Source: Chitinilyticum piscinae (lineage in GTDB: Bacteria; Pseudomonadota; Gammaproteobacteria; Burkholderiales; Chitinibacteraceae). From it: a DNA stretch of 64,000 nucleotides. Made by a program: the position numbers and the translations under genes. The DNA lies in the NCBI RefSeq assembly GCF_015223195.1, contig NZ_JADFUA010000001.1:575858-639857 (forward strand), given 5' to 3'. Positions 7,764 to 57,107 of the stretch are shown here, piece by piece (within the stretch, counting starts at the first letter, position 1; every line of letters starts with the position of its first letter). The notes below the pieces were generated by a model. It did no database searches. It saw only the letters and a list, made by a program, of their open reading frames with translations, and was not told the DNA's origin.

Positions 7764-7846
7764 TCCGGCAGAATGTGTCTGCAGTCAAGAACATCAATCG
7801 GACTGGGGCAAGCCCCGGCAGTACCGATGGCGAGCCACAACGTGGC

Positions 7847-26823: not shown

Positions 26824-27015
26824 GGCAAGGGTGTCCGGGTGATGAAGATGCAAAGCCGAGGGGATTTTGTCAGATTGATGAAATGAATGGCGGAAATTGT
26901 GTGTGACGGTGGTGACAGCACTGCTGTTCGCACATCCCGTTGCACTCACGCGCTTGCCGCATTCGCTCCGCTCCGGTTTAATAACTGACCAGTCAGTCAT
27001 TAAGTGTGTGTCATC

Positions 27016-27669
27016 ATGGACGAACACCGCGATCAGCCTTCCCGCCGGCAACGGCGCAAGGACGCCAGACCCTCGGAAATCACCGCCGCCGCCTTGCGTT
27101 TGTTTCACGAACGCGGCTTTGCCGCAACCAAGCTGGACGATGTCGCCGCGGCGGCCGGCGTGACCAAGGGCACGCTCTACCTCTATTTCCCGAGCAAGGA
27201 AGCCTTGTTCAAGGCCGTGGTGCAGGAAAGCGTCATTCCGAACATCGACCGGCTGGCGCAGGCTGCGGCCTCATCCACCGAGCCGCCGCTGGGCAAGCTG
27301 GCGCTTGTGCTGCGCCTGCTGGCGCAGGGGCTGAACGAGAGCGACGGCTGCATTTCCAAACTGATGCTGGCCGAGGCCGGCAATTTCCCCGAGCTGGCGC
27401 AGTTCTATGTCGACGAGGTGGTGCACCGGCTGCACGACGTGGTGCGCGGAATACTCTCCGAGGGTATTGCCACGCAGAGCTTCAGAAATATCGATCTTGT
27501 GCATACACCCCGCCTGATCATGGCCCCGTTGCTGCTGGCCAATATGTGGCGCAATACCTATGGCAGCTTCGACCGCTATCCGGTCGACCCCGCCCATTAC
27601 GCCGAACTCCAGATTGCCATGCTGCAGCACGGCTTGCTGCCATCACCCCAGGAACCCCGTCATGACTGA
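27016..27669 (+). CDS. TetR/AcrR-family transcriptional repressor
   Basis: HTH signature ITAAALRLFHERGFAATKLDDVAAAAGVTKGTLYLYFPSKEALF. Start at MDEHRDQ. Its stop overlaps the start of the downstream HlyD gene. Confidence 0.85.
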   Translation: MDEHRDQPSRRQRRKDARPSEITAAALRLFHERGFAATKLDDVAAAAGVTKGTLYLYFPSKEALFKAVVQESVIPNIDRLAQAAASSTEPPLGKLALVLRLLAQGLNESDGCISKLMLAEAGNFPELAQFYVDEVVHRLHDVVRGILSEGIATQSFRNIDLVHTPRLIMAPLLLANMWRNTYGSFDRYPVDPAHYAELQIAMLQHGLLPSPQEPRHD

Positions 27670-28765
27670 AACCGCAAACGCCGCTCCGCCGCGGCAGAAC
27701 AAGGCCCGCAAGATACTGGGCGGCATCCTGCTGCTGGTCGCCGCCCTGATCGGCTGGCGCATCTGGTGGTCCAGCGGCCATATCGGCACGGATAACGCGC
27801 AGGTCGAAGGGCACATCGTGCCGGTGTCGGCACGGGTCGGCGGCTATGTGCTGCGGGTGCCCAACGAGGACAACAGCCAGGTGGCACGCGGCCAGTTGCT
27901 GGTCGAGATCGACCCGCGCGACTACATCGCCAGGGTGGCGCAGGCCGAGGCCGACTGGCGCAATGCGCTGTCGGCATCCGGCCAGTCCGGTCAGCCGGGC
28001 GAGGCGCTGGCCAAGATCGGTGCGGCCAATGCCGCGGCGGCTGCCGCCGCCGCACAGGGACAGGCTGCCGAGACAGCAATTGCCGAAGCCCGCGCAACGG
28101 CCACCAAGGCACGCAATGACCTGCAACGCGCCCGCGAGCTGGCGGCGCAGAAGATGTACAGCCAGGCGCAGCTCGATACTGCGCAGACGGCACTGGCGGT
28201 CGCCGAAGCGCGCGTACAGAGCCTGATCGCGCAGAAAAATGCCGCGCAGGAGCAGGCCGCCGCCGCACGCCAGCAGGTGGTGGTGTCCGGAGCCGGGCTG
28301 AAGTCGGCCGAAGCCAAGACCATGGCCGCCGAGGCCGCGCTGGCACTGGCCAGGCATCAGCTGGCCGATACGCAGGTGACCGCGCCGGCCAGCGGCGTGG
28401 TGAGCAAACGCGCGGTCGAGCCGGGGCAGATGATCCAGGCCGGGCAGACGCTGATGTATCTGGTCGATACCTCGCGTCTGTGGGTGACGGCCAACCTCAA
28501 GGAAACCGAGATTGCCGAGGTGAAACCGGGCCAGCGGGCCGAGATCAGGGTCGATGCCCTGTCCGGGGTGAAGCTGACCGGCAAGGTTAAATCGTTCAGC
28601 CCGGCAACCGGCGCGCGCTTTACCCTGCTGCCACCGGACAATGCCACCGGCAATTTCACCAAGGTGGTGCAGCGCGTGCCGGTGCGCATCGCGCTGGATC
28701 CCTTGCCCGAAGGTGTGACCTTGCGCCCCGGGCTGTCGGTGGATGTGACCATCCTGACGCGCTGA
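27662..28765 (+). CDS. HlyD-family membrane fusion protein (EmrA-like)
   Basis: Start at MTETANAAPP. N-terminal TM helix ILGGILLLVAALIGW. Long coiled-coil. Biotinyl-lipoyl-like and beta-barrel segments characteristic of EmrA. Confidence 0.85.
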   Translation: MTETANAAPPRQNKARKILGGILLLVAALIGWRIWWSSGHIGTDNAQVEGHIVPVSARVGGYVLRVPNEDNSQVARGQLLVEIDPRDYIARVAQAEADWRNALSASGQSGQPGEALAKIGAANAAAAAAAAQGQAAETAIAEARATATKARNDLQRARELAAQKMYSQAQLDTAQTALAVAEARVQSLIAQKNAAQEQAAAARQQVVVSGAGLKSAEAKTMAAEAALALARHQLADTQVTAPASGVVSKRAVEPGQMIQAGQTLMYLVDTSRLWVTANLKETEIAEVKPGQRAEIRVDALSGVKLTGKVKSFSPATGARFTLLPPDNATGNFTKVVQRVPVRIALDPLPEGVTLRPGLSVDVTILTR

Positions 28766-28819
28766 GCAGACATTTGAAGGGCAATGCCATGCTTCAGAGG
28801 CCACTGTGAACCCGCAACG

Positions 28820-30400
28820 ATGAAACCCATCCTTCCCACCCTGTCCCGTTCGGTCGACGACGCCAGCATCCATGCCAACCGCTACATCATCGCGATGACG
28901 GTAACGCTGGCCTGCGTGCTGGAATTGCTCGACACCAGCATCGTCAATGTCGCCATCCCGCACATGATGGGCACGCTGGGCGCGACGCTGGACGAAATCA
29001 CCTGGGTGTCGATCGGCTATGTGGTTGCCAATGTCATCGTACTGCCGATCTCGGGTTTTCTGGGCAATCTGTTTGGCCGGCGCAACTACCTGCTGCTGTC
29101 GATTACGCTGTTCATCGTGGCGTCGATTGCCTGCGGCAACGCCAGCACCCTGCCGGAAATGGTGTTCTGGCGCATCGTGCAGGGCCTGGGCGGCGGCGGG
29201 CTGATCGCGACCGCGCAATCGACGATGTTCGAGGTGTTCCCGCGCAAGGAAATGGGCGCGGCGATGGCGATCTTCGGCATGGGTATCATGCTCGGGCCGA
29301 TGCTGGGACCGACTGTCGGTGGCTGGCTCACCGACCAGTACAGCTGGCCGTGGATTTTCTACATCAACCTGCCGCTGGGCCTGCTGGCGCTGCTGCTGGT
29401 GCTGCTGTACGTGCCGGAATCAAAGCTCAGGCAGAAGGTCGAGCATATCGATTTCACGGGCTTGCTGCTGATGGCCGCCGGCATCGGCGCGCTGCAGCTG
29501 ATGCTGGAGCGCGGCGAGCGGCTGGACTGGTTCGATGCCTGGGAAGTGGTGGCCTATGCGGTGATCAGCATCGCCGCGCTGGGGGCCTTCATCATCCGCC
29601 AGCTGGAACACCTGCACCCGCTGGTCGACCTGCGCGTGTGCCGCGACCCGCAGTTTGCCGCCGGGCTGGTGATGACCTTCTTCCTCGGCGCCTCGCTGTT
29701 TGCCACCGTGTTCATCTTCCCCGTGTATCTGCAGACACTGATGGGCTATTCGGCCTGGCAGACGGGCTTGCTGATCCTGCCTTCTGCCCTGGCATCCGGG
29801 CTGATCATGCCGGTATCGGCACGGCTGGTGAGCAAGGGGTTTCCGGCGCGCGGGCTGATTATCTGCGGTGCTGGCCTGTTCATGTATTCGATGTGGCTGC
29901 ATTACCACTTCACCACGCAGTCGGGCACCTGGGATTTCATGCTGCCGCTGGTGATCCGTGGCGTAGGCCTTGGCATGATTTTCATGCCCTTGAACAATCT
30001 GAGCATGGCCAATCTGCAGCCGCTGCAGATCGGCAGTGCCACGGGCTTGTACAACCTGACCCGCCAGCTTGGCGGCAGTGTCGGCATTGCGCTGTCGGCG
30101 ACGTTTTCGACCAAGCTCTCGCACATGAAAAACGATGTGCTGCTGGAACACCTGAGCGGGCCGTTTGCCAGCGAGCGCCTGGCAATGCTCAAGTCCCGCC
30201 TGCTGGCGAGCGGCATGCCGGTCACCAGCGCGGATGGTGCGGCGCATGCACTGCTGGCGCAGCAAGTGCAGAAACAGGCACTGATGCTGGCCTACGACCA
30301 TCTGTTCATGCTGTTCGGCCTGGCCATGCTGCTGACCCTGCCCTTGCTGGTGGTGATGAAAAAGCAGCAGGTTGCGGCATCGGCAGAAGTGGCACACTAA
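28820..30400 (+). CDS. MFS drug:H+ antiporter, DHA2 (EmrB/QacA) family, 14 TM
   Basis: Start at MKPILPTL. DHA2 motifs LDTSIVNVAIP and GxxxDxxGRR-like FGRRNYLL. 14 predicted TM helices. Confidence 0.85.
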   Translation: MKPILPTLSRSVDDASIHANRYIIAMTVTLACVLELLDTSIVNVAIPHMMGTLGATLDEITWVSIGYVVANVIVLPISGFLGNLFGRRNYLLLSITLFIVASIACGNASTLPEMVFWRIVQGLGGGGLIATAQSTMFEVFPRKEMGAAMAIFGMGIMLGPMLGPTVGGWLTDQYSWPWIFYINLPLGLLALLLVLLYVPESKLRQKVEHIDFTGLLLMAAGIGALQLMLERGERLDWFDAWEVVAYAVISIAALGAFIIRQLEHLHPLVDLRVCRDPQFAAGLVMTFFLGASLFATVFIFPVYLQTLMGYSAWQTGLLILPSALASGLIMPVSARLVSKGFPARGLIICGAGLFMYSMWLHYHFTTQSGTWDFMLPLVIRGVGLGMIFMPLNNLSMANLQPLQIGSATGLYNLTRQLGGSVGIALSATFSTKLSHMKNDVLLEHLSGPFASERLAMLKSRLLASGMPVTSADGAAHALLAQQVQKQALMLAYDHLFMLFGLAMLLTLPLLVVMKKQQVAASAEVAH

Positions 30401-30749
30401 GGGTATATCCCCAAAAGTCATTTGAATAAATGGCTGCATGGTAATACCCATGCAACTGGCTGGCCAAACATGGTGCGCGGCTGATCCCGCTGCGGGCAGG
30501 ATCAGTGCCGCGGCTCTTGCTGCCGCAACCGGAAAACCGCTCAGCATTCCGGAAAATTGCTGATCCGGCGGGTTTATCCCGCCAACCCTTCCAGAAAACT
30601 TGAAAGTGCTTCAAGAAAGCTCTGTGACAGGCCTGCGGGTCATGCGCCTAAGATGAGCTTGTCTTCCCGAGAGGAAGCGGCGCGAGCCACCTGCCAGTTC
30701 TTGGGCAGACTGGCCGCACCCCTGACAAGCATATCAAGAGGGTTCGGAG

Positions 30750-33251
30750 ATGAATGATCTGTTGCAGCCACTGTTCGACCACGCCGGCATGCTGGCTATC
30801 GGCGCGGTGTTGATTGTTTTGCTGGTGAATTCCATCGTCATTGTTGGCGGTGAAGAAATGGCGCTGCTGGAACGCCGCTGGCTGGGGCGCAAGATGCCGC
30901 AGGGGCGGGTGGTGGCGCAGCCCGGTGAGGTGGGGATCCAGGCGCGCACACTCGGGCCGGGACTGCACCTGCTGATTCCCTTCCTGTTCAAGGCGACCAA
31001 GATTCCCTTCGTTACGATTGCCGATGCCGAAATCGGCCTGGTTGAATCCATCGACGGGCATGCGGTATTGCCGGGCAAGATCTTTGCCGAGCCGGTCGAC
31101 GGGCACAACTCCTTCCAGGATGCCGAAGCCTTCCTGCGCAATGGCGGCCAGAAAGGCCCGCAGGTAGCGGTGCTGCCACCGGGGAAATACCGTATCAACC
31201 CGTATCTGTTCCGTGTGGACAAGGCCGCGATGATCACCATCCGCGACCATGAAATCGGTATTGTCGAGGCGACCGATGGCGACCCGATTCCGGCCGGCCG
31301 AATCTTTGCCCGCACGGTGGCCGGCCATCAGGCATTCCAGGACGGCGCCGGGTTTCTGCGCAACGGCGGGCAGAAAGGTCCGCAGATCGACGTGATCCCG
31401 CCGGGGAATTACCGGATCAACCCGCTGCTGTTCAAGGTAAGCAAGAGCGCGGCGGTCAGCATTCCCGAAGACAGCATCGGCCTGATCGAAGCCACGGATG
31501 GCGAGCCGATTCCGGCCGGGCGCATCTTTGCGCGGGTGGTGAAAGGCCATGATGCCTATCAGTCCGGGCAGGCCTTTATCGACAATGGTGGGCAGAAGGG
31601 CCCGCAGATCGATGTGCTGCCTCCGGGGCTGTACCGGATTCACCCGAATCTGTTCAAGCTGCAGATTGTGCCGGCCATCGTGATCGAGAAGGGCGCGGTC
31701 GGGGTGGTGCTGGCACAGGATGGTCTGCCGATTCCGACCGGGCGTCTGCTCGCGCACCGCGTCAGCGGCCATGACAACTTCGAGAATGGCGAGGCCTTCC
31801 TCAACCAGGGCGGGCAGAAAGGGCCGCAGATCGATGTGCTGCTGCCGGGTACTTACCGGATCAATACCGCACTCTTTGCCGTTCGCACCGCGCCGGCCAC
31901 GGTGGTCGAGGCCAATCACGTCGGGCTGGTGACCGCGCTGGACGGTATCCCGCTGCCGGAAAACGAATACGTGGCACGGCAGGTGGGCGGCCATGACGAC
32001 TACCAGAACGGCTCGGCCTTCCTGACCCAGGAAGGCCAGCGTGGCCCGCAGCTGGACGTGCTGCGCCCCGGGACGTATTACATCAACCCGCTGCTGTTTA
32101 CCGTCGAACTGGACAAGGTGGCCGTCATCGAGCGCGGTCAGGTCGGTGTAGTCGTGTCCAACGTCGGGGAGGCCCCGCCCGAGGAAATGATCCGCCGTCT
32201 GTCCGCCACGCAGGGCTCGACACAGGAAGCCGGGCAGGAACGCTATGTGGTGCCCAAGGGCTTCCGCGGGATTCAGGAGGAAGTCGCCGGCCCCGGCAGC
32301 TATTACCTGAATCGTCGCGCCTTCATGGCCTACATCATCGATACGACCAACATCACCATCGACTGGGACGAGCAGGCCGATACCCGCTTTGACGAACTGA
32401 CGGTGATTTCCAAGGATGGCTTCCCCATCCAGGTCTCGGTCAAGGTGGTCATTCGCGTGCGGCCCGATCAGGCGCCCTATATGGTCGCCAAGGTCGGCTC
32501 GGTCGATAACCTGATCCAGCACGTCATCCATCCGATGATCGACTCTTCCTTCCGCAACCAGGCCTCCACGGCCTCGGCGATGGATTTCCTGCAAAGCCGC
32601 TCGGAAGAACAGGCCAAGGCCGAAGCGCGCGTGCGCGCCGATCTGGAGAAATACCACGTCGAATGCGTCTCGGTGCTGATCTGCCAGATCAAGCTGCCTG
32701 CCGAACTGATGGAAACGCAGACCAAGCGCATCATCGCCGAGCAGCAGCTGGAGATGTACAAGATGGAGCAGCGCTCGCAGGTGGAACGCACGCAGATGGA
32801 AAAAATGCGCGCCACCGCCGACCAGCAGCCTGTGCTGGTGGCTTCGGAAATTGCCGTGCAGGTGGCCCAGCAGAAAAAGAGCGAGATGGTGACGCTGGCC
32901 GAAGGCGAGGCCCGTTCCAAGGCGCTCGACGGCGAGGGGGAAGGCAACCGGCTGCGGCTGATCGGTGACGGCGAGGCGGCCAAGATCTCCGCCATCGGTG
33001 AAGCCACCGCGCTGGCCTACCAGAAGCAGACCGAAGCGCTGGGCGAGGATGCCATCCGCTCGATCAAGCTGGTCGAACTGATTTCGGGGGCCATCGAACG
33101 CGGCCAGCTCAAGATTGTTCCCGATGTCATGGTCTCGGGCAGCGGAGCCAGCGAAGGCTTCATGGCCCAGCTGGCCCGCCTGCTCCCCGGCATGGACCTG
33201 GGCCAGCTGCTGGCGCGCGGCAAACCCGATGTGCTGCCGCCACCGCAATAA
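30750..33251 (+). CDS. flotillin/SPFH (band-7) family protein with an expanded N-terminal region of five to six ~75-aa tandem repeats
   Basis: 833 aa. TM helix LAIGAVLIVLLVNSIVIV. SPFH beginning VVAQPGEVGIQARTLGPGLHLLIPF. Five near-identical units (...IG.VEA.DG.PIP.GRIFAR.V.GH..FQ.G.AFL.NGGQKGPQIDV.PPG.YRINP.LFKV) plus a degenerate sixth. Flotillin-type Glu/Ala/Gln-rich coiled-coil C-terminus (EQQLEMYKMEQRSQVERTQMEKMRATADQQ). Confidence 0.8.
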   Translation: MNDLLQPLFDHAGMLAIGAVLIVLLVNSIVIVGGEEMALLERRWLGRKMPQGRVVAQPGEVGIQARTLGPGLHLLIPFLFKATKIPFVTIADAEIGLVESIDGHAVLPGKIFAEPVDGHNSFQDAEAFLRNGGQKGPQVAVLPPGKYRINPYLFRVDKAAMITIRDHEIGIVEATDGDPIPAGRIFARTVAGHQAFQDGAGFLRNGGQKGPQIDVIPPGNYRINPLLFKVSKSAAVSIPEDSIGLIEATDGEPIPAGRIFARVVKGHDAYQSGQAFIDNGGQKGPQIDVLPPGLYRIHPNLFKLQIVPAIVIEKGAVGVVLAQDGLPIPTGRLLAHRVSGHDNFENGEAFLNQGGQKGPQIDVLLPGTYRINTALFAVRTAPATVVEANHVGLVTALDGIPLPENEYVARQVGGHDDYQNGSAFLTQEGQRGPQLDVLRPGTYYINPLLFTVELDKVAVIERGQVGVVVSNVGEAPPEEMIRRLSATQGSTQEAGQERYVVPKGFRGIQEEVAGPGSYYLNRRAFMAYIIDTTNITIDWDEQADTRFDELTVISKDGFPIQVSVKVVIRVRPDQAPYMVAKVGSVDNLIQHVIHPMIDSSFRNQASTASAMDFLQSRSEEQAKAEARVRADLEKYHVECVSVLICQIKLPAELMETQTKRIIAEQQLEMYKMEQRSQVERTQMEKMRATADQQPVLVASEIAVQVAQQKKSEMVTLAEGEARSKALDGEGEGNRLRLIGDGEAAKISAIGEATALAYQKQTEALGEDAIRSIKLVELISGAIERGQLKIVPDVMVSGSGASEGFMAQLARLLPGMDLGQLLARGKPDVLPPPQ

Positions 33252-33276
33252 GGGAGTGATCAATAAGCCAGCAAAG

Positions 33277-33307
33277 CAAACGCGCCAGGATAGCCATGGC
33301 GCGTTTG
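33277..33307. terminator. probable bidirectional terminator hairpin between the convergent flotillin and lipoprotein genes
   Basis: 10-bp stem CAAACGCGCC / GGCGCGTTTG with an 11-nt loop. Lies in the 167-nt gap between convergent stops (33251 and 33419). Confidence 0.5.
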
Positions 33308-33418
33308 CCTTCATCTGAAAGCGAAAATGTCGATGCCTCCGCTTTAGGCCTTGCATCCACATGAAGCATGACAAGGAATCCGGATTCCGCCCGCCAAGGG
33401 CAGCGGGCGGAGTTGGAA

Positions 33419-34834
33419 TCAATCGCTCCAGCCGCCTTCGCAGCGGAAGCTTTCAGCGGGCAGGGTACGCAGCTTGCCGCTGCGTGCATCCAGCTCCCAG
33501 AGGCGGCCTTGGGTCTGTTTGGCATCCCAGCGGTGCTTGTGCCAGCCACTCATGTCATCGCTCTTGCCCTGCTTGAATTTCGGCGAAGGCAAAAAGCCGA
33601 TCTGGACCAGTTGTTTGCTATCACCGATGAGCTGAGGCAGCTTCTGGGTCCCGGTAATGCACGACTGGCCACCTGCTTCGCCCTGATAGGAATGCTCAAC
33701 CGTCAGTTTATTCATGTCGTAGGGGCCAACCGGCTGTGCATCGGCAACCACGAAGCTGCGCTTGTCGACAACCAGTAGCCACTGCTGCTCCGGTCGCGAA
33801 GCCAGAATCAGCTGCCAGTGTCTGGCTGCGTTGTCGTACTCTTCCCGTCCTCCGCCACGAACATCGAACTGAGTGAACGATTTGGCTGCCTTGCTACCGG
33901 GGGGCGTTTCTATCCAGCCAGCGCTTTTGAGCAGCGGGTATTTGCCACTGTCGTCGATCCCGCCGGGCAGGGTCTTGCCGATCAGCAAACGCGGGTCGCT
34001 GCCGAGATTGCTGCTGGCTACCACCTCTTCGGTGCTGGTATTGCGCGCTTTATAGCGACCACTGGCAGGATCAAGGCCCCATACCCTGACGAGCGGTTTG
34101 GCGAGTTGCACCAGCTTGCCCTGAGCATCGCTGATGGTTCCGGTGGTGGTGGTTCGCAACTGCAGTGGCTGGTTGGCACTCGCCAGTACTTCCAGCTTGG
34201 TATCGCTTTCCTGACAACGGGCGTTCGGTTTGCACGCTCCGGCATTGCTGACGGAACCATCAATACTGCCCAGCTCGGCGATCTGACCGTCCTTGTAGCC
34301 ACCAATCAGCCAGCGTTCAGACGAGTACCCCTGCCGGAAAGTCCATGCGCTGATAAGCCAGCCAGCATGCCCAGTGCCCAGATCGAGCCAGCGGATGCTC
34401 TCCGCTGCCGGAGGGTTGCCGAATCCAAGGCTGGATTCTGTTCTTTGTACGGCTTGCCAGCCTTTGCTCGTATTTAAAAAACGCCCAATTAGGATAGAAC
34501 CGCTTGCGGTATTGCCATCCCGTTCTGCGGCGGCAATCGCGTAAAGAGCCTGAGTGCCGTCGGACTCCCGAATCAGTCGCGCATCGAGCACGTACGCTGT
34601 TGCCACGCTGCCATCCTTGAGGCGGATGCGGGCTTGCCCCTGAGCGTTGCTGCTCCCAAACCATGTGTGAGCTAGTCCTACCGTATCTAGTTTGGAAATG
34701 CTGGAAATCTGGACAGGCTTTCCGGCACTGACTGGTGGTTTGGTTGGCTGAGTGGGCGAAGTGGCAGGCTGGACGGTCACACACCCAGCCATTAGTGCTG
34801 CCAGTGGGAGCAGGGCTAGCAGTGGCTTATTCAT
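33419..34834 (-). CDS. lipoprotein, hypothetical (471 aa)
   Basis: Lipobox LLPLAALMAGC. Ser/Thr/Gly-rich secreted protein. Convergent with the flotillin gene. Confidence 0.65.
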   Translation of the reverse strand: MNKPLLALLPLAALMAGCVTVQPATSPTQPTKPPVSAGKPVQISSISKLDTVGLAHTWFGSSNAQGQARIRLKDGSVATAYVLDARLIRESDGTQALYAIAAAERDGNTASGSILIGRFLNTSKGWQAVQRTESSLGFGNPPAAESIRWLDLGTGHAGWLISAWTFRQGYSSERWLIGGYKDGQIAELGSIDGSVSNAGACKPNARCQESDTKLEVLASANQPLQLRTTTTGTISDAQGKLVQLAKPLVRVWGLDPASGRYKARNTSTEEVVASSNLGSDPRLLIGKTLPGGIDDSGKYPLLKSAGWIETPPGSKAAKSFTQFDVRGGGREEYDNAARHWQLILASRPEQQWLLVVDKRSFVVADAQPVGPYDMNKLTVEHSYQGEAGGQSCITGTQKLPQLIGDSKQLVQIGFLPSPKFKQGKSDDMSGWHKHRWDAKQTQGRLWELDARSGKLRTLPAESFRCEGGWSD

Positions 34835-38546: not shown

Positions 38547-39704
38547 ATGGCAGACAGTCACCGTAAATTGAAAGTTCTTTGTGTATTTGGCACCCGTCCG
38601 GAAGCCATCAAGATGGCGCCGGTGATCAGGGCCTTGCAGGCGGATGAGCAAATGGATTGCCTGGTCTGTGTGACCGCGCAGCACCGGGAGATGCTTGATC
38701 AGGTGATGCGGCTGTTCGGTTTGCAGGCTGATTTTGATCTCGATCTGATGCGCCCGGGACAAACACTGGCCAGTCTGACCTCACGTGTTCTGGAAGGGGT
38801 GACCGATGTGCTGGAGCGCTGCCGGCCCGATATCGTGCTGGTGCATGGTGATACGTCCACTACCCTGGCGGCAGGACTGGCTTCGTTTTACCAGCGCATT
38901 CCGGTCGCGCATGTCGAGGCTGGCCTGCGCACCGGGGATATGGAGGCACCGTGGCCGGAGGAGCTGAATCGTTCGGTGGTCGGGCTGTTTGCCCGTCTGC
39001 ATTTTGCGCCCACCGGGCAGGCTGCCCAGAACCTTCGTGCGGAGGGGCGCCGTGAGGAGGATATTTTCATCACCGGGAATACCGTGATTGATGCACTGCT
39101 TGGCATCAGCAAACAGCTGGACGAGAACCCGGCACTGGCGCAAGAGCAGGCCACGCGTTTCCCCTTTCTGGCTGCGGACAAGAAGCTGGTGCTGGTGACC
39201 GGCCATCGCCGCGAGAATTTTGGCGATGGTTTTCTGAATATCTGCAAGGGACTGGCCAGGCTGGCCAGCCGTGACGACATCCAGATTGTCTATCCGGTGC
39301 ACCTGAACCCGAATGTGCAGGAGCCAGTCAATGCGCTACTGCGCGGCTTGCCGAACATTCATCTGATCGAGCCCCAGGATTACCTGCCCTTCGTGTATCT
39401 GCTTAAGCGTGCCGAGCTGATTCTGACCGACAGCGGGGGGATTCAGGAGGAGGCACCGGCACTGGGCAAGCCGGTGCTGGTCATGCGTGACACCACTGAG
39501 CGTCCCGAAGCCGTGGCTGCCGGCACAGCCAGACTGGTGGGGACGGACTGTGAGCGCATCGTCGCGGCGGTCAGCAATTTGCTGGATGACCGTCAGGCCT
39601 ATCTTGGCATGACCGAGGCGCCCAATCCCTACGGCAATGGCCAGGCTGCCGCACAGATCCGCGCCGCCATGCTCGATTGGTGGGCGCGAACCCGAGCGGA
39701 ATGA
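38547..39704 (+). CDS. wecB: UDP-N-acetylglucosamine 2-epimerase (non-hydrolysing)
   Basis: 385 aa beginning [27 protein letters not shown]. Contains HVEAGLRT and the ...[27 protein letters not shown] motifs. Start lies inside the longer spurious ORF 37368..39704. Confidence 0.9.
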
Positions 39705-39715
39705 AAAGCAGGTTT

Positions 39716-41860
39716 CTAAGTCTGTGGCGCATCCTGCCCTGAGCGTGCAGAAGGGATTTCCTGGGCCTGTTGCAGTTTTTGCAGCTGTTCGAAGTCTTCC
39801 CGGCTGATGGCACCCTTGCTGATCAGATAGTTGATCAGGTGCTGATGCTCATCCAGATCAAAGCCCCTGATGGCCTCATCCAGCTCGCGAGCCGTGAGCA
39901 GATTGTGGATGACCATCAGGTCGATCAGGGCGGGTTTCCCATCAGGCAGGAAGTCCGAGCTGAGCCCCGAGAGCAGGCGCAGCGCGGCATTGATCTCGCT
40001 CTCGCGAGCGATGAACTGGCGGATGGGTTTGCCCAGTTGTTGCTCCAGAGCATCCTTGTCCGTATCGGTCAGCGGGGTGGCAACCGCCACATGGATGAGT
40101 TGCTCGTGCTGCAGAAACGGGATCGCCCGCAGGCGGAAGCAATGTTCGAAAGCCAGCCGCCGATGCAGCTGCAGGATGCCGTCCTTATCCAGCCTGGCGC
40201 GGCGCAGGTCATATTGCGCGGAGATGGCCTCCGCCAGCGTTTCATCATCCAGTGCGCCTTGCACCACCAGCAAGCGCCCGACAGGCAACTGGAACTGGCT
40301 TTGCTGGCGCAGCGCGGTTTCGAGTTGCTCGGGCTCGATGGCTTGCCAGCTGACCAGCAGCTCGCCCAGCCGTTTGCGCTGTTTGGCCAGCCTTTCTGCC
40401 GAAGGAAAGTGGTGCATGGTCTTGTCCCAGACCAGGCGCTTGCCAGTAAACAGAAAGTTGAGAAACATCCGCCAGGCGCGCATCGTCGCCAGAAAGTTGA
40501 TCAGATTGCTGACCGCCATGCGAGGGATCGACATCAGTCCCTGTTCCCAACCGTATAGCCGGTTCACGAAATAGAAGCGCTGCACGACGCGACTGATCAT
40601 GATGGAGCCGGTGAAGGTGGCGATGTACAGCGGCCAGCTACCGGGGGCGAAAATCGGCGGAAAATGCAGTGTCCACCAGCCCGCCTTGCTGGCAATGTAG
40701 AAAGCGAGAAACTGGAAGAAGACCAGATAAGCCAGCACATTGAGCAGCGAGGTAACGATGCCTTTGCGGTCACGGAACAGCAGGTATCGATCTGCCAGCG
40801 AGCCGTGCCAGCCCAGATGCATCCAGCCCTGCAGGCTGATGCCGAGTACCCAGCGTGCGCGCTGGCGGTAGGAGGTGTACAGGGTATCGGGGAAATATTC
40901 GCGCACGCAAAGCGGCATGTCGATCACGGTTTCCCGGTCTGCCGCCAGGCCGAACCAGCTCTTGCGCCGCACCTGGAATTGCACCGGGAAGCGGGCAAAG
41001 ATGGTCTTCATATCGGTGGCCGCCAGCCGGGTGCCGATGTCGTAGTCTTCGGTCAGGCTGTCGGTGTTGAAGGGCTGGTTATTGCTGTCTGCACACAGGT
41101 GCAGGAGGGCCCGCCGGGAAAAGCAGGTGCCCACTCCGGCGGAGGGCACCATCCCCGAGAGGCTCTCGCGTACGACCAGATCCTTGCCATGCCATTCGGC
41201 AAATTCATCCATGTAGGTGCCGGCCACCAGCTCGAACCAGTCGCGCTCGAGCGAGGTAACTGGCAGCTGGATCATGTCCTTGCGCGGCAGCAAGTAATTG
41301 AAAAACTTGAGTTCCAGCGGGTGCAGCACATCTTCGGCATCGTGCATGACAATCCCGGCAAATTCGATGCCGTTATCCTGCTCGTACTTGAAAATGGCCT
41401 GGATGATCCAGTTCAGGCAATCTGCCTTGCAGGTCGGCCCGGGATTGGGCACTTCCACCCGCAGCAAATGGCGGAAATGGCGGCGAACACGTTCGACTTC
41501 GTCGATGGTGGCCTGATCATTGCAATAGGTGCCCACGAACACGACATAGCGGCGATAGTCGAGCACACTCATCATGTTCTCGACCATCTGCGCGATGACA
41601 TCGTATTCCTGCCAGGCCGGCACCATGATCGCCAGATATTGCTCGTTTTTTTCCTTGAGCTGGGCCGCACTGAGTGGCCGGTAATCCGCACGGCGCTTGA
41701 TCGTGAGCTTGCGCCAGAGCTCGCGCGCCCAGTACCAGATGTCGATGAAGACATCATCCACGCTGGAGATGAGGATCAGGATGGTCAGAACAACCGCCAC
41801 GACCTCCAGTGCCGCATAGTACTGGGCAAAATAGACTGACGTTCCAAGCGAGAGACTCAC
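39716..41860 (-). CDS. processive family-2 glycosyltransferase with C-terminal MshEN-type c-di-GMP-binding domain (NfrB-like exopolysaccharide synthase)
   Basis: 714 aa. N-terminal TM helix. GT2 domain with VMHDAEDV (DxD), SLTEDYDIG (TED) and YRQRARWVLG (QxxRW). About four C-proximal TM helices. Cytoplasmic tail carries RLGELLVSWQAIEPEQLETALRQQ, then a 7-aa spacer, then GRLLVVQGALDDETLAEAISAQ. These match the two tandem MshEN motifs (RLGxxL(L/V)xxGx(I/L)xxxxLxxALxxQ). Confidence 0.85.
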   Translation of the reverse strand: MSLSLGTSVYFAQYYAALEVVAVVLTILILISSVDDVFIDIWYWARELWRKLTIKRRADYRPLSAAQLKEKNEQYLAIMVPAWQEYDVIAQMVENMMSVLDYRRYVVFVGTYCNDQATIDEVERVRRHFRHLLRVEVPNPGPTCKADCLNWIIQAIFKYEQDNGIEFAGIVMHDAEDVLHPLELKFFNYLLPRKDMIQLPVTSLERDWFELVAGTYMDEFAEWHGKDLVVRESLSGMVPSAGVGTCFSRRALLHLCADSNNQPFNTDSLTEDYDIGTRLAATDMKTIFARFPVQFQVRRKSWFGLAADRETVIDMPLCVREYFPDTLYTSYRQRARWVLGISLQGWMHLGWHGSLADRYLLFRDRKGIVTSLLNVLAYLVFFQFLAFYIASKAGWWTLHFPPIFAPGSWPLYIATFTGSIMISRVVQRFYFVNRLYGWEQGLMSIPRMAVSNLINFLATMRAWRMFLNFLFTGKRLVWDKTMHHFPSAERLAKQRKRLGELLVSWQAIEPEQLETALRQQSQFQLPVGRLLVVQGALDDETLAEAISAQYDLRRARLDKDGILQLHRRLAFEHCFRLRAIPFLQHEQLIHVAVATPLTDTDKDALEQQLGKPIRQFIARESEINAALRLLSGLSSDFLPDGKPALIDLMVIHNLLTARELDEAIRGFDLDEHQHLINYLISKGAISREDFEQLQKLQQAQEIPSARSGQDAPQT

Positions 41861-44058
41861 AGCGCAACATCACCCTTGCGACGGCGGCGGATCTGCGTGA
41901 GACGTGCAAGCAGCAGCACGAAACCGACCAGGCCGATCAGACCGGTCCATAGCCACCAGTAGCGATCCCAGACGGTATCCGGATCAGCGGCTTCTGCCAG
42001 CGCGCTACCGTCCGGATCGTGCTGATCCAGCTGGATTACTTTGCCATCCCCAGTGATGATGGCCAGGTTTCCGCGATCAAGTGATGGGGTATTGTCTTGA
42101 ATCTCTGGTATTTCAGCGCCTGTGGATGTATACAATACACCGTATTGGCCGCCGGCCTTGACGATTTCGGCGAGCCCGAGCTTGTGAAGCTGGTTGGCCC
42201 CCAGATTCTGCACGGCCTTGCCGTTAACGAGCACCTGACCATTGCGCAGAGAGGTCACGGGGCTGACACCCGGTAGCGTTACACCCACGGCAAAGAAGGT
42301 ACTTTCGGGTACGGGGGCGGCCTGCTTCTGGGCGATGAAGCGTGCCGGTGCCATATCGGCACTGGCACCCAGTGCGCTGGCCATGTCGATCAGGCCAGGC
42401 AGGTTCTTCTGTGCCTGATCAAGCAGTGAATCGGCAAGTAGCACAGTGCCGGTGCTGCCAAAACGCGTACTGATGCCCATGAAGTTGCTGCTGCCAAGCG
42501 ATTTGCCAAGCTGCAGGTGGCTTCCGGGGAGCAAGGACACCGGATAGGCAACCGGGGTGTCATGGCAGCGCGGGGTGCTGGGCTGGCGGTTGAAGCGCAC
42601 TGTGAGCGTGTTCTTGCTGCGCAGGATATAGTCAGGAATTGCAACTTCGATGCGTTGAACCTTGCCATTGCTGCGCACGTGCTGCGCACCGAGCAGCAGA
42701 TCATTCAGGAAGACCGATACCACCGGCTTTTCCTGCTGCTGATTAGGGGCGGCAGAGACATCCAGCACCACGGCCGTCGGCTGTTTGCCGCTTGTGCTCA
42801 AATCAGCCAGTGAAAACGACACACTGCGCTGTCCCTGGCTGAGTATGTCGAGGCTGCCGGAGAAGGCGGCCAATTTGTCCAGCAGGATGGCGTCCCTTCT
42901 GAGCGAAAAATCACCAGACTGGCTTTCCGGCTGGGCGCGCAGATCATTACGCAGCTGTTGCCACGCCGGCTGGAATGTATTTCCCAGATGGCGAGCCTGC
43001 GCACCAACGATAATCAGCGGCTGCCCAGCAAATTGCCCCAGCGCGATTGAATCGTTGGCCTGTGGCAGCGCGAAGCGCTTGCTGCGCCAGGCCGCGAAGC
43101 TGGCGGCACTGTCAGCCGATACTTCGGCCATCTGTGCCTGCAACGCATCCAGCGCTTTCTGGATGGCTCCGCGCAGGGCCGGGCTGTCGACCAGCAGATC
43201 GGCGGACAGCGGCCCCTGTCGCCCCAGTACCAGCAGTGCGCCCAACTGGGCTTCGTCGGCAATGAGATGGCTGGGTGATGCCTTGCTCAAGGCAGCAAAG
43301 GCCGGGATGCCCTGCAGACTGGCCGGCACCTGGATGCTGCGCAGGTCAATCTGGCTGCCAACGGTTGGCAGGCTGCGCAATTGCAGCCGTTTGTTGTGCT
43401 CTTTCAGCAGCACGCCGATGCGCCATGCCTGATCAAAGCTCTGTGGGTCGCTACGTCCCGCAGGAAGAAGGAGGATCGGCTCGGGGGGCAGCGATTGCCA
43501 TGCTGCCGTGGCGCTCATGACGTCATCGGCATCAAAGCTGAATTCCAGTCGTGTGGCCGGATTGATGTTCAGAATGTTGCCATCGCTGGATTCGCTGCTG
43601 CAGACCTGCTCCGCAAGCGCGGAGGACCAGCCTACGGAAAATTGCAGGAACCCATTGCGGATTTGCGTGTTGCCCAGAGCCAGCGGCAGCTGGAGTGGGG
43701 CGCTATCAGCGGTGATGTTCTGGCTGAGTACCGGGACGCCATTGGCCGTCACCTGCAAGGTCGAGCGGCCACCGCTGCCGCGCAGATAGTTGCCATTCAA
43801 CTGGAGGCTGGCTTGCTGCAGGGCGATGCCAGCTGGTACCGGAAAGTAAAAGTCACGTGAGCTGTTGCGGCCGCGCAGGGTAACCGGCTCGGGGATGCCG
43901 ATCTGGGTCAGCGGGATCGAGCGCGTGACCAGAGACCTGCTTTGCCAGCTGGCAAACTGATCACCAGCAGGACCGGCATGAGTCGTGGCGCCAAGCGAGG
44001 CAAGAACAGGAATAAGTACTGCCGCCAGAAAGCGGCTGGGGTAGAAAAGAGCTGGCAT
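41857..44058 (-). CDS. large periplasmic protein with C-terminal membrane anchor (BcsB-like architecture), translationally coupled to the GT2 gene
   Basis: 733 aa. Signal peptide FLAAVLIPVLASLGATTHA. ~690-aa soluble region. C-terminal TM helix WWLWTGLIGLVGFVLLLARL with basic tail TQIRRRRKG. The stop overlaps the GT2 start by 4 nt. Assignment to the BcsB family rests on architecture and context only, not a verified alignment. Confidence 0.55.
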   Translation of the reverse strand: MPALFYPSRFLAAVLIPVLASLGATTHAGPAGDQFASWQSRSLVTRSIPLTQIGIPEPVTLRGRNSSRDFYFPVPAGIALQQASLQLNGNYLRGSGGRSTLQVTANGVPVLSQNITADSAPLQLPLALGNTQIRNGFLQFSVGWSSALAEQVCSSESSDGNILNINPATRLEFSFDADDVMSATAAWQSLPPEPILLLPAGRSDPQSFDQAWRIGVLLKEHNKRLQLRSLPTVGSQIDLRSIQVPASLQGIPAFAALSKASPSHLIADEAQLGALLVLGRQGPLSADLLVDSPALRGAIQKALDALQAQMAEVSADSAASFAAWRSKRFALPQANDSIALGQFAGQPLIIVGAQARHLGNTFQPAWQQLRNDLRAQPESQSGDFSLRRDAILLDKLAAFSGSLDILSQGQRSVSFSLADLSTSGKQPTAVVLDVSAAPNQQQEKPVVSVFLNDLLLGAQHVRSNGKVQRIEVAIPDYILRSKNTLTVRFNRQPSTPRCHDTPVAYPVSLLPGSHLQLGKSLGSSNFMGISTRFGSTGTVLLADSLLDQAQKNLPGLIDMASALGASADMAPARFIAQKQAAPVPESTFFAVGVTLPGVSPVTSLRNGQVLVNGKAVQNLGANQLHKLGLAEIVKAGGQYGVLYTSTGAEIPEIQDNTPSLDRGNLAIITGDGKVIQLDQHDPDGSALAEAADPDTVWDRYWWLWTGLIGLVGFVLLLARLTQIRRRRKGDVAL

Positions 44059-44223
44059 GGCGTCACGGGGCTTCGGCTGTGGGTGCTTGAACTATAAGCA
44101 CAAAAGGGAAAATTCGGCGCGTATATTACCAAGCACCAAATCAACCCGAACAAGCCCTGTGTAACGCTATGCACATGACATAGCGCAGTGCGTGAGCACC
44201 GCGCCATGTCTTGCTGCCTAGGG

Positions 44224-45426
44224 TTATGCCACGCAGGTATTTGCCTGGCGGGCGATCATCAGCTCTTCGTTGGTCGGGATGACATACACGGCGACCTTGC
44301 TGTCTTCCGCCGAGATGCGACGCGGTTCGCCCGAACGCACGGCGTTGGCCGCCGGGTCGACGATGACGCCCAGCCAGCCCAGTTGCGCGCAGACAGCCGC
44401 ACGGGTCAACGCGTCGTTTTCGCCGATACCGGCGGTGAACACCAGCGCGTCGATACCTTGCAGTGCGGCGGCCAGTGAGCCGGTTTCACGCACGATGCGT
44501 GACACGAAGTAATCGATGGCCAGTTTGGCGCGCGGCGAATCGGAGGCTTCCAGATCGCGCATGTCGCTGGAAATGCCGGACATGCCGAGCAGGCCGGATT
44601 TCTTGTACAGCAGGTCTTCGATCTGTTTGGCATCCATTTTCAGGTGGTTCAGCAAGTGCAGCACTACACCGGCGTCGATCGAGCCGGTGCGGGTGCCCAT
44701 CGGCAGGCCTTCCAGTGCGGTAAAGCCCATGGTTGAGGCGATACCCTTGCAGGCTTGCAGCGCGGCCATCGACGAACCGTTGCCCAGGTGGCAGACCACG
44801 GTGCGGCCTTCGGCTGCGCGGGCGTCGATCTGCGGCAGGACGCTGGCGATGTATTCGTAAGAGAGACCGTGGAAGCCGTAGCGGCGAATGCCTTCCTGCT
44901 GGCTGAATTCATACGGCAGGCCATAGAGCTGGTTCAGCTCCGGCTGGTTGGCGTGGAAGGCGGTGTCAAAGCAGGCCACCTGCGGTACGTCGGGCAGCAG
45001 GCCTTGCAGGATCTTGATCGGGGTGATGTTGTGCGGCTCGTGCAGGGGGGCCAGCGGGATCAGTTTTTCCAGCTCGCTGACTACCTCGGCGGTGACTACG
45101 ACCGGCTGCGAGAATTTGGTCCCACCATGCACCACGCGGTGGCCGATGACGGCAATCTTGCGGCCGTTGATGACGCCGTTGATCCACGCCAGCATGTGGC
45201 GCAGCGCTTCATCGTGATTCTTGGCACTGCCCGGAATTGCCTCCGCAGAAACGAGTTTCGCGTCGCTGGCATCCTTGGCGGTGAATTTCGGATCGACATA
45301 GATGCCCTCGGCCAGCCCCTTGTACAGCAGGACCGGATCGGCGGCGCTGTTTTCGAACAGGGAAAACTTGATGCTGCTCGAACCGGCATTGATGACAAGA
45401 ATCAGCTCGTTCTGCTTGGTGGTCAT
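44224..45426 (-). CDS. ackA: acetate kinase
   Basis: 400 aa. N-terminus LILVINAGSSSIKFSLF. Also HRVVHGG and the FDTAFH motif. Confidence 0.95.
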   Translation of the reverse strand: MTTKQNELILVINAGSSSIKFSLFENSAADPVLLYKGLAEGIYVDPKFTAKDASDAKLVSAEAIPGSAKNHDEALRHMLAWINGVINGRKIAVIGHRVVHGGTKFSQPVVVTAEVVSELEKLIPLAPLHEPHNITPIKILQGLLPDVPQVACFDTAFHANQPELNQLYGLPYEFSQQEGIRRYGFHGLSYEYIASVLPQIDARAAEGRTVVCHLGNGSSMAALQACKGIASTMGFTALEGLPMGTRTGSIDAGVVLHLLNHLKMDAKQIEDLLYKKSGLLGMSGISSDMRDLEASDSPRAKLAIDYFVSRIVRETGSLAAALQGIDALVFTAGIGENDALTRAAVCAQLGWLGVIVDPAANAVRSGEPRRISAEDSKVAVYVIPTNEELMIARQANTCVA

Positions 45427-55400: not shown

Positions 55401-56444
55401 TTATTGCACCAGCACCGGGCCGGCCAGCGGGTCGGCCTCGACCAGCCAGCGCTTGTCGCCGGCGGCCTTCACGGCCAGCTTCTTGCTGCCCTGCTGCAGC
55501 ACCGGTGCCGAAGCGGCGGTGATTGCCAGTGTTACCGGAATCGCGTAGCGCTTGCAGTCGGTGGCGGAGGTATCGAACTGGATGCCTTTGCTATCAAGCT
55601 TTACCGAGCAATACCTGCGGGTTTCGCGGTAGCGGATCACTTCGGTCGGTGTCGCGATCCACAGCTTGCCGGCATCCGCCTGCTGCTTCAGATAATCGGC
55701 GTAAGCGGTGTATTCGGCCAGCGGCACCGCCTCCCAGCTGCCATCGGCAACCCCGTGCATGGTGCGGAAGGTCCAGCTGCCGCTGTTGATGGCGGCTTCG
55801 GCATGCTGGATCAGGATGCTGCCGGCGGCGCCCGGTTTGTACAGTGACCACTTGCCATCGGTCCAGTACACATCCCATTTCACAAAATAGGGATCACCCT
55901 CATCCGTGTTCAGCCCGGCCATGCTGCCGTCGTACAGGTGCTTGGCTGCGCGTGCGCCGAGATAATCGGGCTGCTGTTTCACCATTGCCCGGGTTTCCGG
56001 GCTGGCGAGGTCAAACGGGTAGCCGATAAAGCTGAAGCGATAGCCGGTTTTTTCCAGCATCAGTGCATGCGCGTCGAGGATTTCGCGTTTGGCATCCCAG
56101 CCTTTTACCGCGGCCAAGGTGCCGGCTTCCAGTTCGCCGCTGTGACTGAGGGTATGGTTGAAGGGCTCGTAGCCTTTGGCGATCAGCTCTTTCAGGCGCG
56201 CCCAGTCGGCAGGCTTGCATTCCTTGCCAATCACGCCAACCGCCGCCTTCAGCCCGCGTGCTTCGAGGATGGGGAGCGCGTTTTTCTCGATCCCGCTTAC
56301 CCCGGGGCTGCAGTAGTCATCATGCGCAATGGTGTGCGCGCCCCTGGCATCACCACGCCACGGGGTGATGCTGACGCTGGTGAGGGGCGCCGCCTGGGCG
56401 GCACTGGCCAGCACTGGCAGCAGGCCTGCCAGCAAAGCAATGGT
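55401..56444 (-). CDS. polysaccharide deacetylase (CE4/NodB-like), secreted
   Basis: Start at MRTIALLAGLLPVLASAAQA (signal peptide) within ORF 55401..56801. NodB-type motifs HTIAHDDY...TLSHSGE, typical CE4 His/Asp metal ligands. Confidence 0.7.
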   Translation of the reverse strand, partial: TIALLAGLLPVLASAAQAAPLTSVSITPWRGDARGAHTIAHDDYCSPGVSGIEKNALPILEARGLKAAVGVIGKECKPADWARLKELIAKGYEPFNHTLSHSGELEAGTLAAVKGWDAKREILDAHALMLEKTGYRFSFIGYPFDLASPETRAMVKQQPDYLGARAAKHLYDGSMAGLNTDEGDPYFVKWDVYWTDGKWSLYKPGAAGSILIQHAEAAINSGSWTFRTMHGVADGSWEAVPLAEYTAYADYLKQQADAGKLWIATPTEVIRYRETRRYCSVKLDSKGIQFDTSATDCKRYAIPVTLAITAASAPVLQQGSKKLAVKAAGDKRWLVEADPLAGPVLVQ

Positions 56445-56549
56445 TCTCATGAGGTGATTTCCTGTGTGCAACACGCAGGCCGGGCAGCCTGTAGCTGCAG
56501 ACGGTATCCTTGTCATGGAAGAGACAACAAGTTTTCTGGAGTAGTGTGT

Positions 56550-56750
56550 ATGGAAGATCGCATCACCGAGCTGGAAATCCGCCTGGCGCTGCAGGATGAG
56601 CTGCTGGATACGCTGAATGCAACGGTCGCGCAGCAGCAGTTGCAGCTGACGCGCCTGCAGCATCTGCTGGCCGAGATGCAGGGACATATCCGCCTGCTCG
56701 AACTCGGCCCGCGCAACCTGCCGCAGCAGGAAATTCCGCCGCATTACTAG
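56550..56750 (+). CDS. slyX: SlyX protein
   Basis: 66 aa. MEDRITELEIRLALQDELLDTLNATVAQQQLQLTRLQHLLAEMQ is collinear with E. coli SlyX. Confidence 0.85.
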   Translation: MEDRITELEIRLALQDELLDTLNATVAQQQLQLTRLQHLLAEMQGHIRLLELGPRNLPQQEIPPHY

Positions 56751-57107
56751 GACCGCACACCAAATGCGCGACGGTATTTTTGCGGGCAAATAGCGGCACA
56801 ATTACCTGTATGCCAAATGGGTGCGGGCATACCATCGTTTCACCCATCACACCGTGCAGCCTTCTTTGGCGGGATACGCCTGCGGGTTTCGGTCGGAGTC
56901 CGCCGGCGCGAGTGTGGAAAAATGGGAGCAGAGTTGGCGGGTATAGTTTGTCTGACTGTCCAAGCCAAATTGATTCAGCTATGCTTACTTCGTTGCTTTA
57001 ATCGGGCGTGGTTGGTCAATTGGCTTGCCGTAGGAAACTGGCAAGCCAAGCTTTCAGTTAAACCCTGCCGATTTGTAAATTGAAAATCATTATCAAGGAG
57101 TTTAGTC

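Follow-up and report, generated by a model that had tools for sequence, protein, structure and literature searches.

A highly divergent BcsB relative probably serves an NfrB-type synthase in Chitinilyticum piscinae without replacing NfrA

BcsB proteins consist of a signal peptide, four domains (D1 to D4), an amphipathic helix, and a transmembrane anchor, and the helix and the anchor are indispensable for polymerization (PMC8892547). In the NfrB-NfrA-YbcH system of E. coli (the N4 glycan receptor or NGR), the synthase is NfrB, whose glycosyltransferase family 2 (GT2) domain is activated when cyclic di-GMP (c-di-GMP) binds to its MshEN domain (PMC8669469). NfrB also requires WecB and UDP-N-acetylmannosamine (UDP-ManNAc) (PMC8669469, PMC8669472). 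In Achromobacter xylosoxidans, the genes nfrA, nfrB, and wecB lie in one cluster with a BcsB homologue (Sellner et al. 2021, PMC8669472). And in Listeria monocytogenes, PssD is a BcsB orthologue that partners with a non-cellulose GT2 synthase, PssC, under the control of c-di-GMP (PMC4125290); the product is a beta-1,4-linked chain of N-acetylmannosamine (ManNAc) (PMC5422440). Here, we consider a gene pair within a 64,000-nucleotide stretch of Chitinilyticum piscinae ("the window"; positions 575,858 to 639,857 of NZ_JADFUA010000001.1). The pair encodes a BcsB-like protein (41857-44058) and an NfrB-type synthase (39716-41860), both on the minus strand.

A preliminary description of the window had proposed that the BcsB-like protein replaces NfrA, or another outer-membrane partner of the synthase. 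This does not hold up: the two genes share one operon in 78 of 80 related loci, including the one from Andreprevotia chitinilytica, which belongs to the same family as Chitinilyticum. Instead, we think it quite likely that the protein is a divergent relative of BcsB that serves a c-di-GMP-switched synthase without replacing NfrA, and that Chitinilyticum alone lost the pore gene from its locus.

How does this locus compare to the described systems? BcsB (PF03170; PDB 4HG6 and 5EJ1 chain B, 6YG8, 7L2Z, and 9FMT) is the best structural match to the BcsB-like protein by a wide margin. Both have a signal peptide, jelly-roll domains that alternate with alpha/beta domains, a terminal amphipathic helix, and a single transmembrane anchor, and both are encoded beside a processive GT2 synthase that is, or is predicted to be, activated by c-di-GMP. 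But the synthase in the window would sense c-di-GMP through MshEN and not through PilZ as BcsA does, and it has about four transmembrane helices instead of eight. Also, in contrast to bcsAB, the BcsB-like gene precedes that of the synthase; the genes linked to the operon are wecB, nfrA, and ybcH, not bcsZ and bcsC; and the product is presumably not cellulose. Turning to E. coli, the synthase is a full-length homologue of NfrB (39% identity) with the same GT2 and MshEN domains. The locus may share NGR's link to WecB and UDP-ManNAc, and relatives of the window's operon carry genes for NfrA_C and DUF4434/YbcH proteins. However, E. coli K-12 has no BcsB-like gene (its locus reads cusS-nfrB-nfrA-ybcH), while NfrA and YbcH are missing from the window. 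The synthase also belongs to a separate NCBIfam equivalog, NF012033, and scores just 628 bits on the NfrB equivalog (the cut-off is 1170).

The Achromobacter cluster (wecB, a bcsB homologue, nfrB, and nfrA; PMC8669472) is also a Bcs/Nfr hybrid. The Chitinilyticum version differs from it in lacking nfrA and ybcH, and we saw no O-acetyltransferase genes in the window. Finally, Listeria PssC-PssD resembles our pair in having no outer-membrane partner. (We liken the two by the published description, not by sequence.) It is a precedent in that it combines a BcsB orthologue with a ManNAc-based, c-di-GMP-dependent polymer and no outer-membrane partner. Unlike the window's system, Pss is found in a Gram-positive host, uses a separate c-di-GMP sensor (PssE), and has the synthase gene before the BcsB gene.

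We then examined whether the protein belongs to the BcsB family, which the preliminary description had suggested from the architecture. Several lines of evidence support its being a highly divergent member. First, the hidden Markov model for BcsB from Pfam (PF03170) matches it at 59.7 bits (gathering score 21; E = 2.3e-16) in two stretches, and precomputed matches to PF03170 are listed for 19 of 27 homologues. In one of the stretches, residues 46-253 align to positions 4-204 of the profile. Second, an AlphaFold2 model that draws on 25 homologues (mean predicted local distance difference test score 81.5; predicted template-modelling score 0.76) has beta, alpha/beta, beta, and alpha/beta blocks and ends in a helix of 40 residues. 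This predicted arrangement agrees with the four-domain periplasmic fold of the BcsB family (jelly-roll, flavodoxin-like, jelly-roll, flavodoxin-like). Third, when the model was compared to PDB with Foldseek, the first 22 matches were all BcsB chains from E. coli or Rhodobacter, with about 730 columns aligned (E = 4e-22 to 1e-14; template-modelling scores of up to 0.57 when normalized to the target). The next matches fell off to E = 7e-8, with scores of about 0.1. So, BcsB chains lead the structural search, and the predicted fold is not unrelated to that of BcsB. Fourth, as in the BcsB family, the gene is in tandem with the gene for a processive GT2 synthase. A HMMER search of 1.84 billion cluster representatives with a profile of the BcsB-like family found only 817 proteins with E ≤ 1e-3, of which 307 have E ≤ 1e-30; this is a small and distinct subfamily of BcsB.

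The open reading frame (ORF) for the BcsB-like protein is intact, starts with ATG, and encodes 733 amino acids, with the C-terminal tail that had been described earlier (WWLWTGLIGLVGFVLLLARLTQIRRRRKG, residues 701-729). It is 100% identical to a C. piscinae record at NCBI that is named BcsB. The hydropathy profile (Kyte-Doolittle) peaks at residues 4-22 and 703-721. The first peak, together with the sequence, indicates an N-terminal signal peptide (residues 1 to about 28; 43975-44058), which probably ends with THA before a glycine. The first jelly-roll domain, of the carbohydrate-binding type, spans residues 43-176 (43531-43932); it is all-beta in the model and lies in the stretch that matches Pfam's BcsB. 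It is followed by an alpha/beta (flavodoxin-like) domain with a helical insert (residues 177-388; 42895-43530), as judged from the model's secondary structure and the full-length Foldseek alignment to BcsB, with approximate boundaries. The second jelly-roll domain (residues 389-522; 42493-42894) is seen in the model and has a local hhalign match to E. coli BcsB, and its residues 431-517 have a weak local match to NCBIfam's BcsB. The model and the Foldseek alignment then place a second alpha/beta domain at residues 523-683 (42010-42492). The C-terminal tail (41860-42009) consists of a short helix, the transmembrane anchor (residues 701-720; 41899-41958), and RRRRK. In the model, residues 693-732 form a long helix, which, with the second hydropathy peak, bears out the proposal of a C-terminal membrane anchor. 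Because 23 of 25 family members retain a C-terminal hydrophobic anchor followed by a run of arginines, this is a conserved feature of the family and not due to chance.

The synthase (714 amino acids, GTG start) has two GT2 matches in Pfam (around 40694-41635) and an MshEN domain (around 39965-40372). Its score is 1050.8 bits on NF012033 (cut-off 537), and on NF053729, the MshE-type c-di-GMP motif, it is 48.9 bits (cut-off 38). Scans with Pfam and NCBIfam found no PilZ domain in it. The DxD, TED, and QxxRW columns are invariant among its homologues. Its AlphaFold2 model matches BcsA, hyaluronan synthase (HAS), and the N-domain of MshE in Foldseek, and hydropathy and the model indicate one N-terminal transmembrane helix and three more after the GT domain. 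The first pair of MshEN motifs is intact (residues 497-549). We also noticed a second pair of MshEN-like 24-residue motifs at the C-terminus (residues ~643-700; ~39761-39934 on the minus strand). Its cores, LLGD and RIGD/E, are conserved in 20 of 20 homologues from outside Chitinilyticum, but both glycines are lost in the window's protein (ALID and HLIN) and in the protein of the C. aquatile type (SLTD and NLAD). The motifs have degenerated in the same lineage that lost nfrA and ybcH. The two genes overlap as GTGA, with the stop codon (TGA) of the BcsB-like gene overlapping the start codon (GTG) of the synthase.

To see which genes accompany such synthases, we scanned a synthase alignment against one genome per GTDB species and used profiles for the components to classify the 80 best loci. 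The BcsB-like gene was directly upstream of the synthase in all 80 loci, so the reversed gene order in the preliminary description (periplasmic subunit first, synthase second) and the conservation of the pair both stand. A homologue of NfrA was present in 78 loci, and in 77 of these it was downstream of the synthase. (In L058, nfrA is upstream instead.) NfrA is missing from two loci: L035, whose contig stops at the synthase (leaving 79 loci that could be assessed), and L013, which is from Chitinilyticum aquatile. An epimerase was linked in 71 of the 80 loci, and a clear homologue of YbcH/DUF4434 (at least 200 bits) in 50. The DUF4434 protein of these relatives is homologous to E. coli YbcH. 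Six further operons from outside Chitinilyticum (from Herbaspirillum, Robbsia, a metagenome-assembled genome of Polaromonas, and three metagenome contigs) all have NfrA, with the arrangement (wecB), bcsB-like, GT2, NfrA_C/TPR, DUF4434. Andreprevotia chitinilytica has the full five-gene operon, and the hybrid operon was also found in Stenotrophomonas, Pseudomonas, Paraburkholderia, Herbaspirillum, and others. We conclude that the widespread and ancestral operon is wecB, bcsB-like, nfrB-like, nfrA, and ybcH (DUF4434). Because the BcsB-like protein occurs together with NfrA in 78 of 80 loci, it is not a substitute for the pore. Rather, judging from gene content, it appears to be the constant inner-membrane and periplasmic co-subunit of NF012033 synthases and to be complementary to NfrA.

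We also came across several oddities. One contig that is labelled as an actinomycete (L087; JBJNRH010000013.1, Nocardiopsis yanglingensis) has the same layout and scores as Stenotrophomonas maltophilia, and is probably contamination of the assembly. In two loci, the BcsB-like gene is broken into a pair of overlapping ORFs (L019, 7613-9984, from Herminiimonas sp. KBW02, and L047, 7237-9973, from Stenotrophomonas geniculata), which could be either a frameshift or pseudogene or else a sequencing error. Operons of the Stenotrophomonas type, from Stenotrophomonas and Xanthomonas (L020-L036 and others), do not have a strong match to YbcH/DUF4434; some of them have a weak match (~70 bits) on the opposite strand just after nfrA. 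And a 1,094-residue protein from a JGI metagenome (P0175) is an NfrB-like GT2 synthase with a C-terminal fusion to a BcsE-like region (PF10995, 139.7 bits), which makes it another Bcs/Nfr mosaic.

Within Chitinilyticum, the locus is reduced. The two-gene form is found in the window, in C. aquatile, and in four metagenome contigs (L005-L008). At all of these loci, the pair lies between pta-ackA and genes for a P-type ATPase and a CBS protein, with no nfrA or ybcH. In the 64-kb window, we found no NfrA with tblastn or by scanning the large ORFs for Pfam's NfrA_C, and no match to YbcH/DUF4434. (A six-sequence NfrA profile missed E. coli NfrA, so the absence from the window rests also on the NfrA_C scans.) We conclude that the absence of nfrA and ybcH reflects a lineage-specific loss from this locus in Chitinilyticum, and that the locus is a reduced variant of a widespread and experimentally uncharacterized Bcs/Nfr hybrid operon. 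Among these loci, the BcsB-like proteins are 46% identical and the synthases are 77% identical. Both genes have full-length ORFs in the window, in C. aquatile, and in the four contigs, and their start/stop overlap is preserved across these loci. Between C. aquatile and L005, the ratio of nonsynonymous to synonymous substitution rates (dN/dS) is 0.15 for the BcsB-like gene (dS = 0.55) and 0.07 for the synthase (dS = 0.37); across the pair comparisons, it ranges from 0.07 to 0.35. These ratios indicate that the gene pair is under purifying selection and is not decaying.

At the syntenic locus (window 41860-44058 compared to 7800-9998 of the C. aquatile locus), no other gene evolves nearly as fast as the BcsB-like one: identity is 92% for AckA, 85% for Pta, 78% for the synthase, 69% for the P-type ATPase, and 46% for the BcsB-like protein. 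As comparators, we used 236 pairs of loci from NfrA-containing genomes whose synthases have fractional identities of 0.72-0.82. Their BcsB-like proteins have identities of 0.52-0.72 (mean 0.60), and the Chitinilyticum pairs, at 0.45-0.46, are below that minimum. We then compared each domain separately, using 157 pairs with synthase identities of 0.74-0.82. Three of the domains are below the comparators' minima in the Chitinilyticum pair: the first jelly-roll domain (0.48; comparator mean 0.72, minimum 0.61), the first flavodoxin-like domain (0.45; mean 0.62, minimum 0.47), and the second flavodoxin-like domain (0.35; mean 0.55, minimum 0.39). The second jelly-roll domain is within the range (0.57; mean 0.68, minimum 0.55), and the C-terminal tail equals the comparator mean (0.57; mean 0.57, minimum 0.22). 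The pattern is suggestive of a tail that keeps its role with the synthase and of periplasmic domains that lost or changed their partner when NfrA and YbcH went. It is suggestive only, because the pairs are not independent and a single lineage is involved.

Based on these comparisons, we propose how the system might work. The BcsB-like protein would be exported via Sec, and its four-domain periplasmic part would be held in the inner membrane by the single C-terminal helix. Its gene is probably translationally coupled to that of the synthase, and the two proteins presumably form a complex. By analogy to BcsA-BcsB and to E. coli NfrB, c-di-GMP would bind MshEN and activate the GT2 domain. If the system is like its homologues, GT2 would polymerize a ManNAc-containing glycan, with UDP-ManNAc supplied by WecB, which is encoded next to the synthase. 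The tail of the BcsB-like protein would pack against the synthase, and its helix probably completes the membrane channel, as in BcsA-BcsB, so that the protein would act as a co-polymerase. Its periplasmic domains would receive and guide the nascent chain, normally towards NfrA.

Several points weigh against this interpretation. Identity to canonical BcsB proteins is very low (~12% in structural alignments). NCBIfam's equivalog for BcsB (NF008324) gives just 19.2 bits, as compared to a cut-off of 972. Searches of the PDB sequences with phmmer and with the 25-sequence profile did not find any BcsB, and aligning the family profile to a single sequence, E. coli BcsB, with hhalign gave a probability of only 13%. 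Outside of the Pfam model, then, the case for remote homology would be weak if it were made from sequence alone. The epimerase gene is convergent with the synthase (11 bp from the synthase's stop codon) and is not co-transcribed with the pair, and C. aquatile has no epimerase at this locus. When we searched a protein database with NfrA from Andreprevotia, we found 33 homologues, down to 26% identity, and none were from Chitinilyticum. (This search depends on a word index and has limited sensitivity, so it is just moderate evidence of absence.) And both the ManNAc product and the role as a co-polymerase are extrapolated from homologous systems.

What became of the outer-membrane step in Chitinilyticum? 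One possibility, to which we give perhaps a one-in-four chance, is that an nfrA-like gene or another exporter of the TPR/beta-barrel type lies elsewhere in the Chitinilyticum chromosome and that the system is otherwise canonical. Synthase-dependent gene clusters are sometimes split, wecB is unlinked from nfrBA in E. coli, and the upstream nfrA in 1 of the 80 loci implies some freedom of position. But the search with Andreprevotia's NfrA reached homologues at 26-30% identity and none were from Chitinilyticum, even though the proteome of C. piscinae is in the database.

A somewhat less likely alternative, and one that we doubt, is that the BcsB-like protein takes over the role of the outer-membrane partner, so that the pair would work without a dedicated pore, with the polymer remaining periplasmic or cell-bound or being released non-specifically. 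The 64-kb window has no gene for NfrA, YbcH, or another pore, and neither do the syntenic loci from three lineages of the Chitinilyticum type; no Chitinilyticum protein was among the retrieved homologues of NfrA; and the pair is under purifying selection, with periplasmic domains that diverged faster than in the 236 comparator pairs, as if their partner had changed or vanished. However, BcsB is anchored in the inner membrane, and no BcsB is known to act as an outer-membrane channel. The co-occurrence in 78 of 80 loci makes the BcsB-like protein and NfrA complementary, not alternatives. Furthermore, the evidence about NfrA comes from the locus and from the word-index-limited search, and our own NfrA profile missed the E. 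coli protein.

It is very improbable that the pair is what remains of the five-gene operon in decay and no longer functions. Decay would fit with the lost nfrA and ybcH genes, the unexpectedly fast divergence of the BcsB-like protein, and the second MshEN-like motif pair without its conserved glycines. But three or more diverged lineages retain full-length ORFs, dN/dS lies between 0.07 and 0.35, the catalytic motifs are intact, as is the first pair of MshEN motifs, and the start/stop overlap that would couple the genes is preserved. Given dN/dS and the intact motifs, we rejected this idea. Finally, we give almost no credence to a genuine cellulose-synthase BcsB, as implied by the product name from NCBI's Prokaryotic Genome Annotation Pipeline (PGAP), since the match to PF03170 and the BcsB fold that favour it are outweighed by a partner synthase that has MshEN instead of PilZ and groups in NF012033 next to NfrB and not BcsA, by a score on the BcsB equivalog of 19 bits against 972, and by relatives' operons that are linked to wecB, nfrA, and ybcH and not to bcsZ or bcsC.

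Our preferred interpretation, a BcsB relative that serves the synthase without replacing NfrA, leaves room for a minimal form of the system in Chitinilyticum. Tentatively, and with a probability well short of even, the c-di-GMP-gated synthase and its BcsB-like co-polymerase might operate as two components, without a porin of their own in the outer membrane. In that case, the glycan would remain periplasmic or at the inner membrane, or exit by an unrelated route, and selection on the periplasmic domains and on the second MshEN-like motifs would have been released or redirected once NfrA and YbcH were lost. If this is true, the pair would be a naturally minimal form, with just two components, of the synthase-dependent systems of Gram-negative bacteria.

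As for the neighboring genes, the epimerase gene (wecB; 38547-39704, plus strand) encodes a non-hydrolysing UDP-N-acetylglucosamine 2-epimerase. It matches TIGR00236 at 502.6 bits (cut-off 210) as well as Pfam's Epimerase_2, and it starts with ATG at 38547 or TTG at 38568. Among the Chitinilyticum-type loci, wecB follows the synthase only in C. piscinae. The P-type ATPase gene is beyond the epimerase, and the genes for acetate kinase and a Pta-like protein are upstream of the pair on the minus strand. Scans for promoters and terminators across 39400-44400 gave nothing better than shuffled sequences did, and nothing within the 165-bp spacer upstream of the pair. Near the pair, Rfam has no riboswitch or known RNA.

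Farther away (about 30 kb from the synthase), two minus-strand genes encode a HAMP-PAS-GGDEF-EAL-CZB protein (7847-11038) and a CHASE2-nucleotide cyclase (5625-7763), which are possible c-di-GMP inputs to the synthase. A 466-residue ORF (55401-56801, minus strand) weakly matches a polysaccharide deacetylase domain (30.4 bits), but it is 11 kb from the pair with unrelated genes in between. Also, the region 25414-34834 contains long minus-strand ORFs (924, 566, 564, 471, and 375 amino acids) with no above-threshold match in Pfam; the 564-residue ORF has just a sub-threshold match to WD40. Because at least some of them overlap plus-strand ORFs with clear domains (MFS, HlyD, and SPFH), these are probably shadow ORFs due to high GC content.

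The pairing of a BcsB-like protein with an NfrB-type synthase is not new: NCBI already annotates the protein as BcsB, and the Achromobacter cluster was noted by Sellner et al. (2021; PMC8669472). That product name is misleading for the C. piscinae protein, although the practical consequence is small. What the survey adds is that the entire NF012033 subfamily, which is common in Stenotrophomonas, Pseudomonas, Paraburkholderia, and Herbaspirillum, always has a BcsB-like co-subunit, while the Nfr system of E. coli, which has been studied well, does not. Because these NfrB-type synthases always carry such a co-subunit, BcsB is not specific to cellulose. It seems to be a portable module for co-polymerization and guidance, here paired with an MshEN switch and an NfrA pore. 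As a natural experiment, the Chitinilyticum loci may then show which parts of BcsB rely on a partner in the outer membrane.

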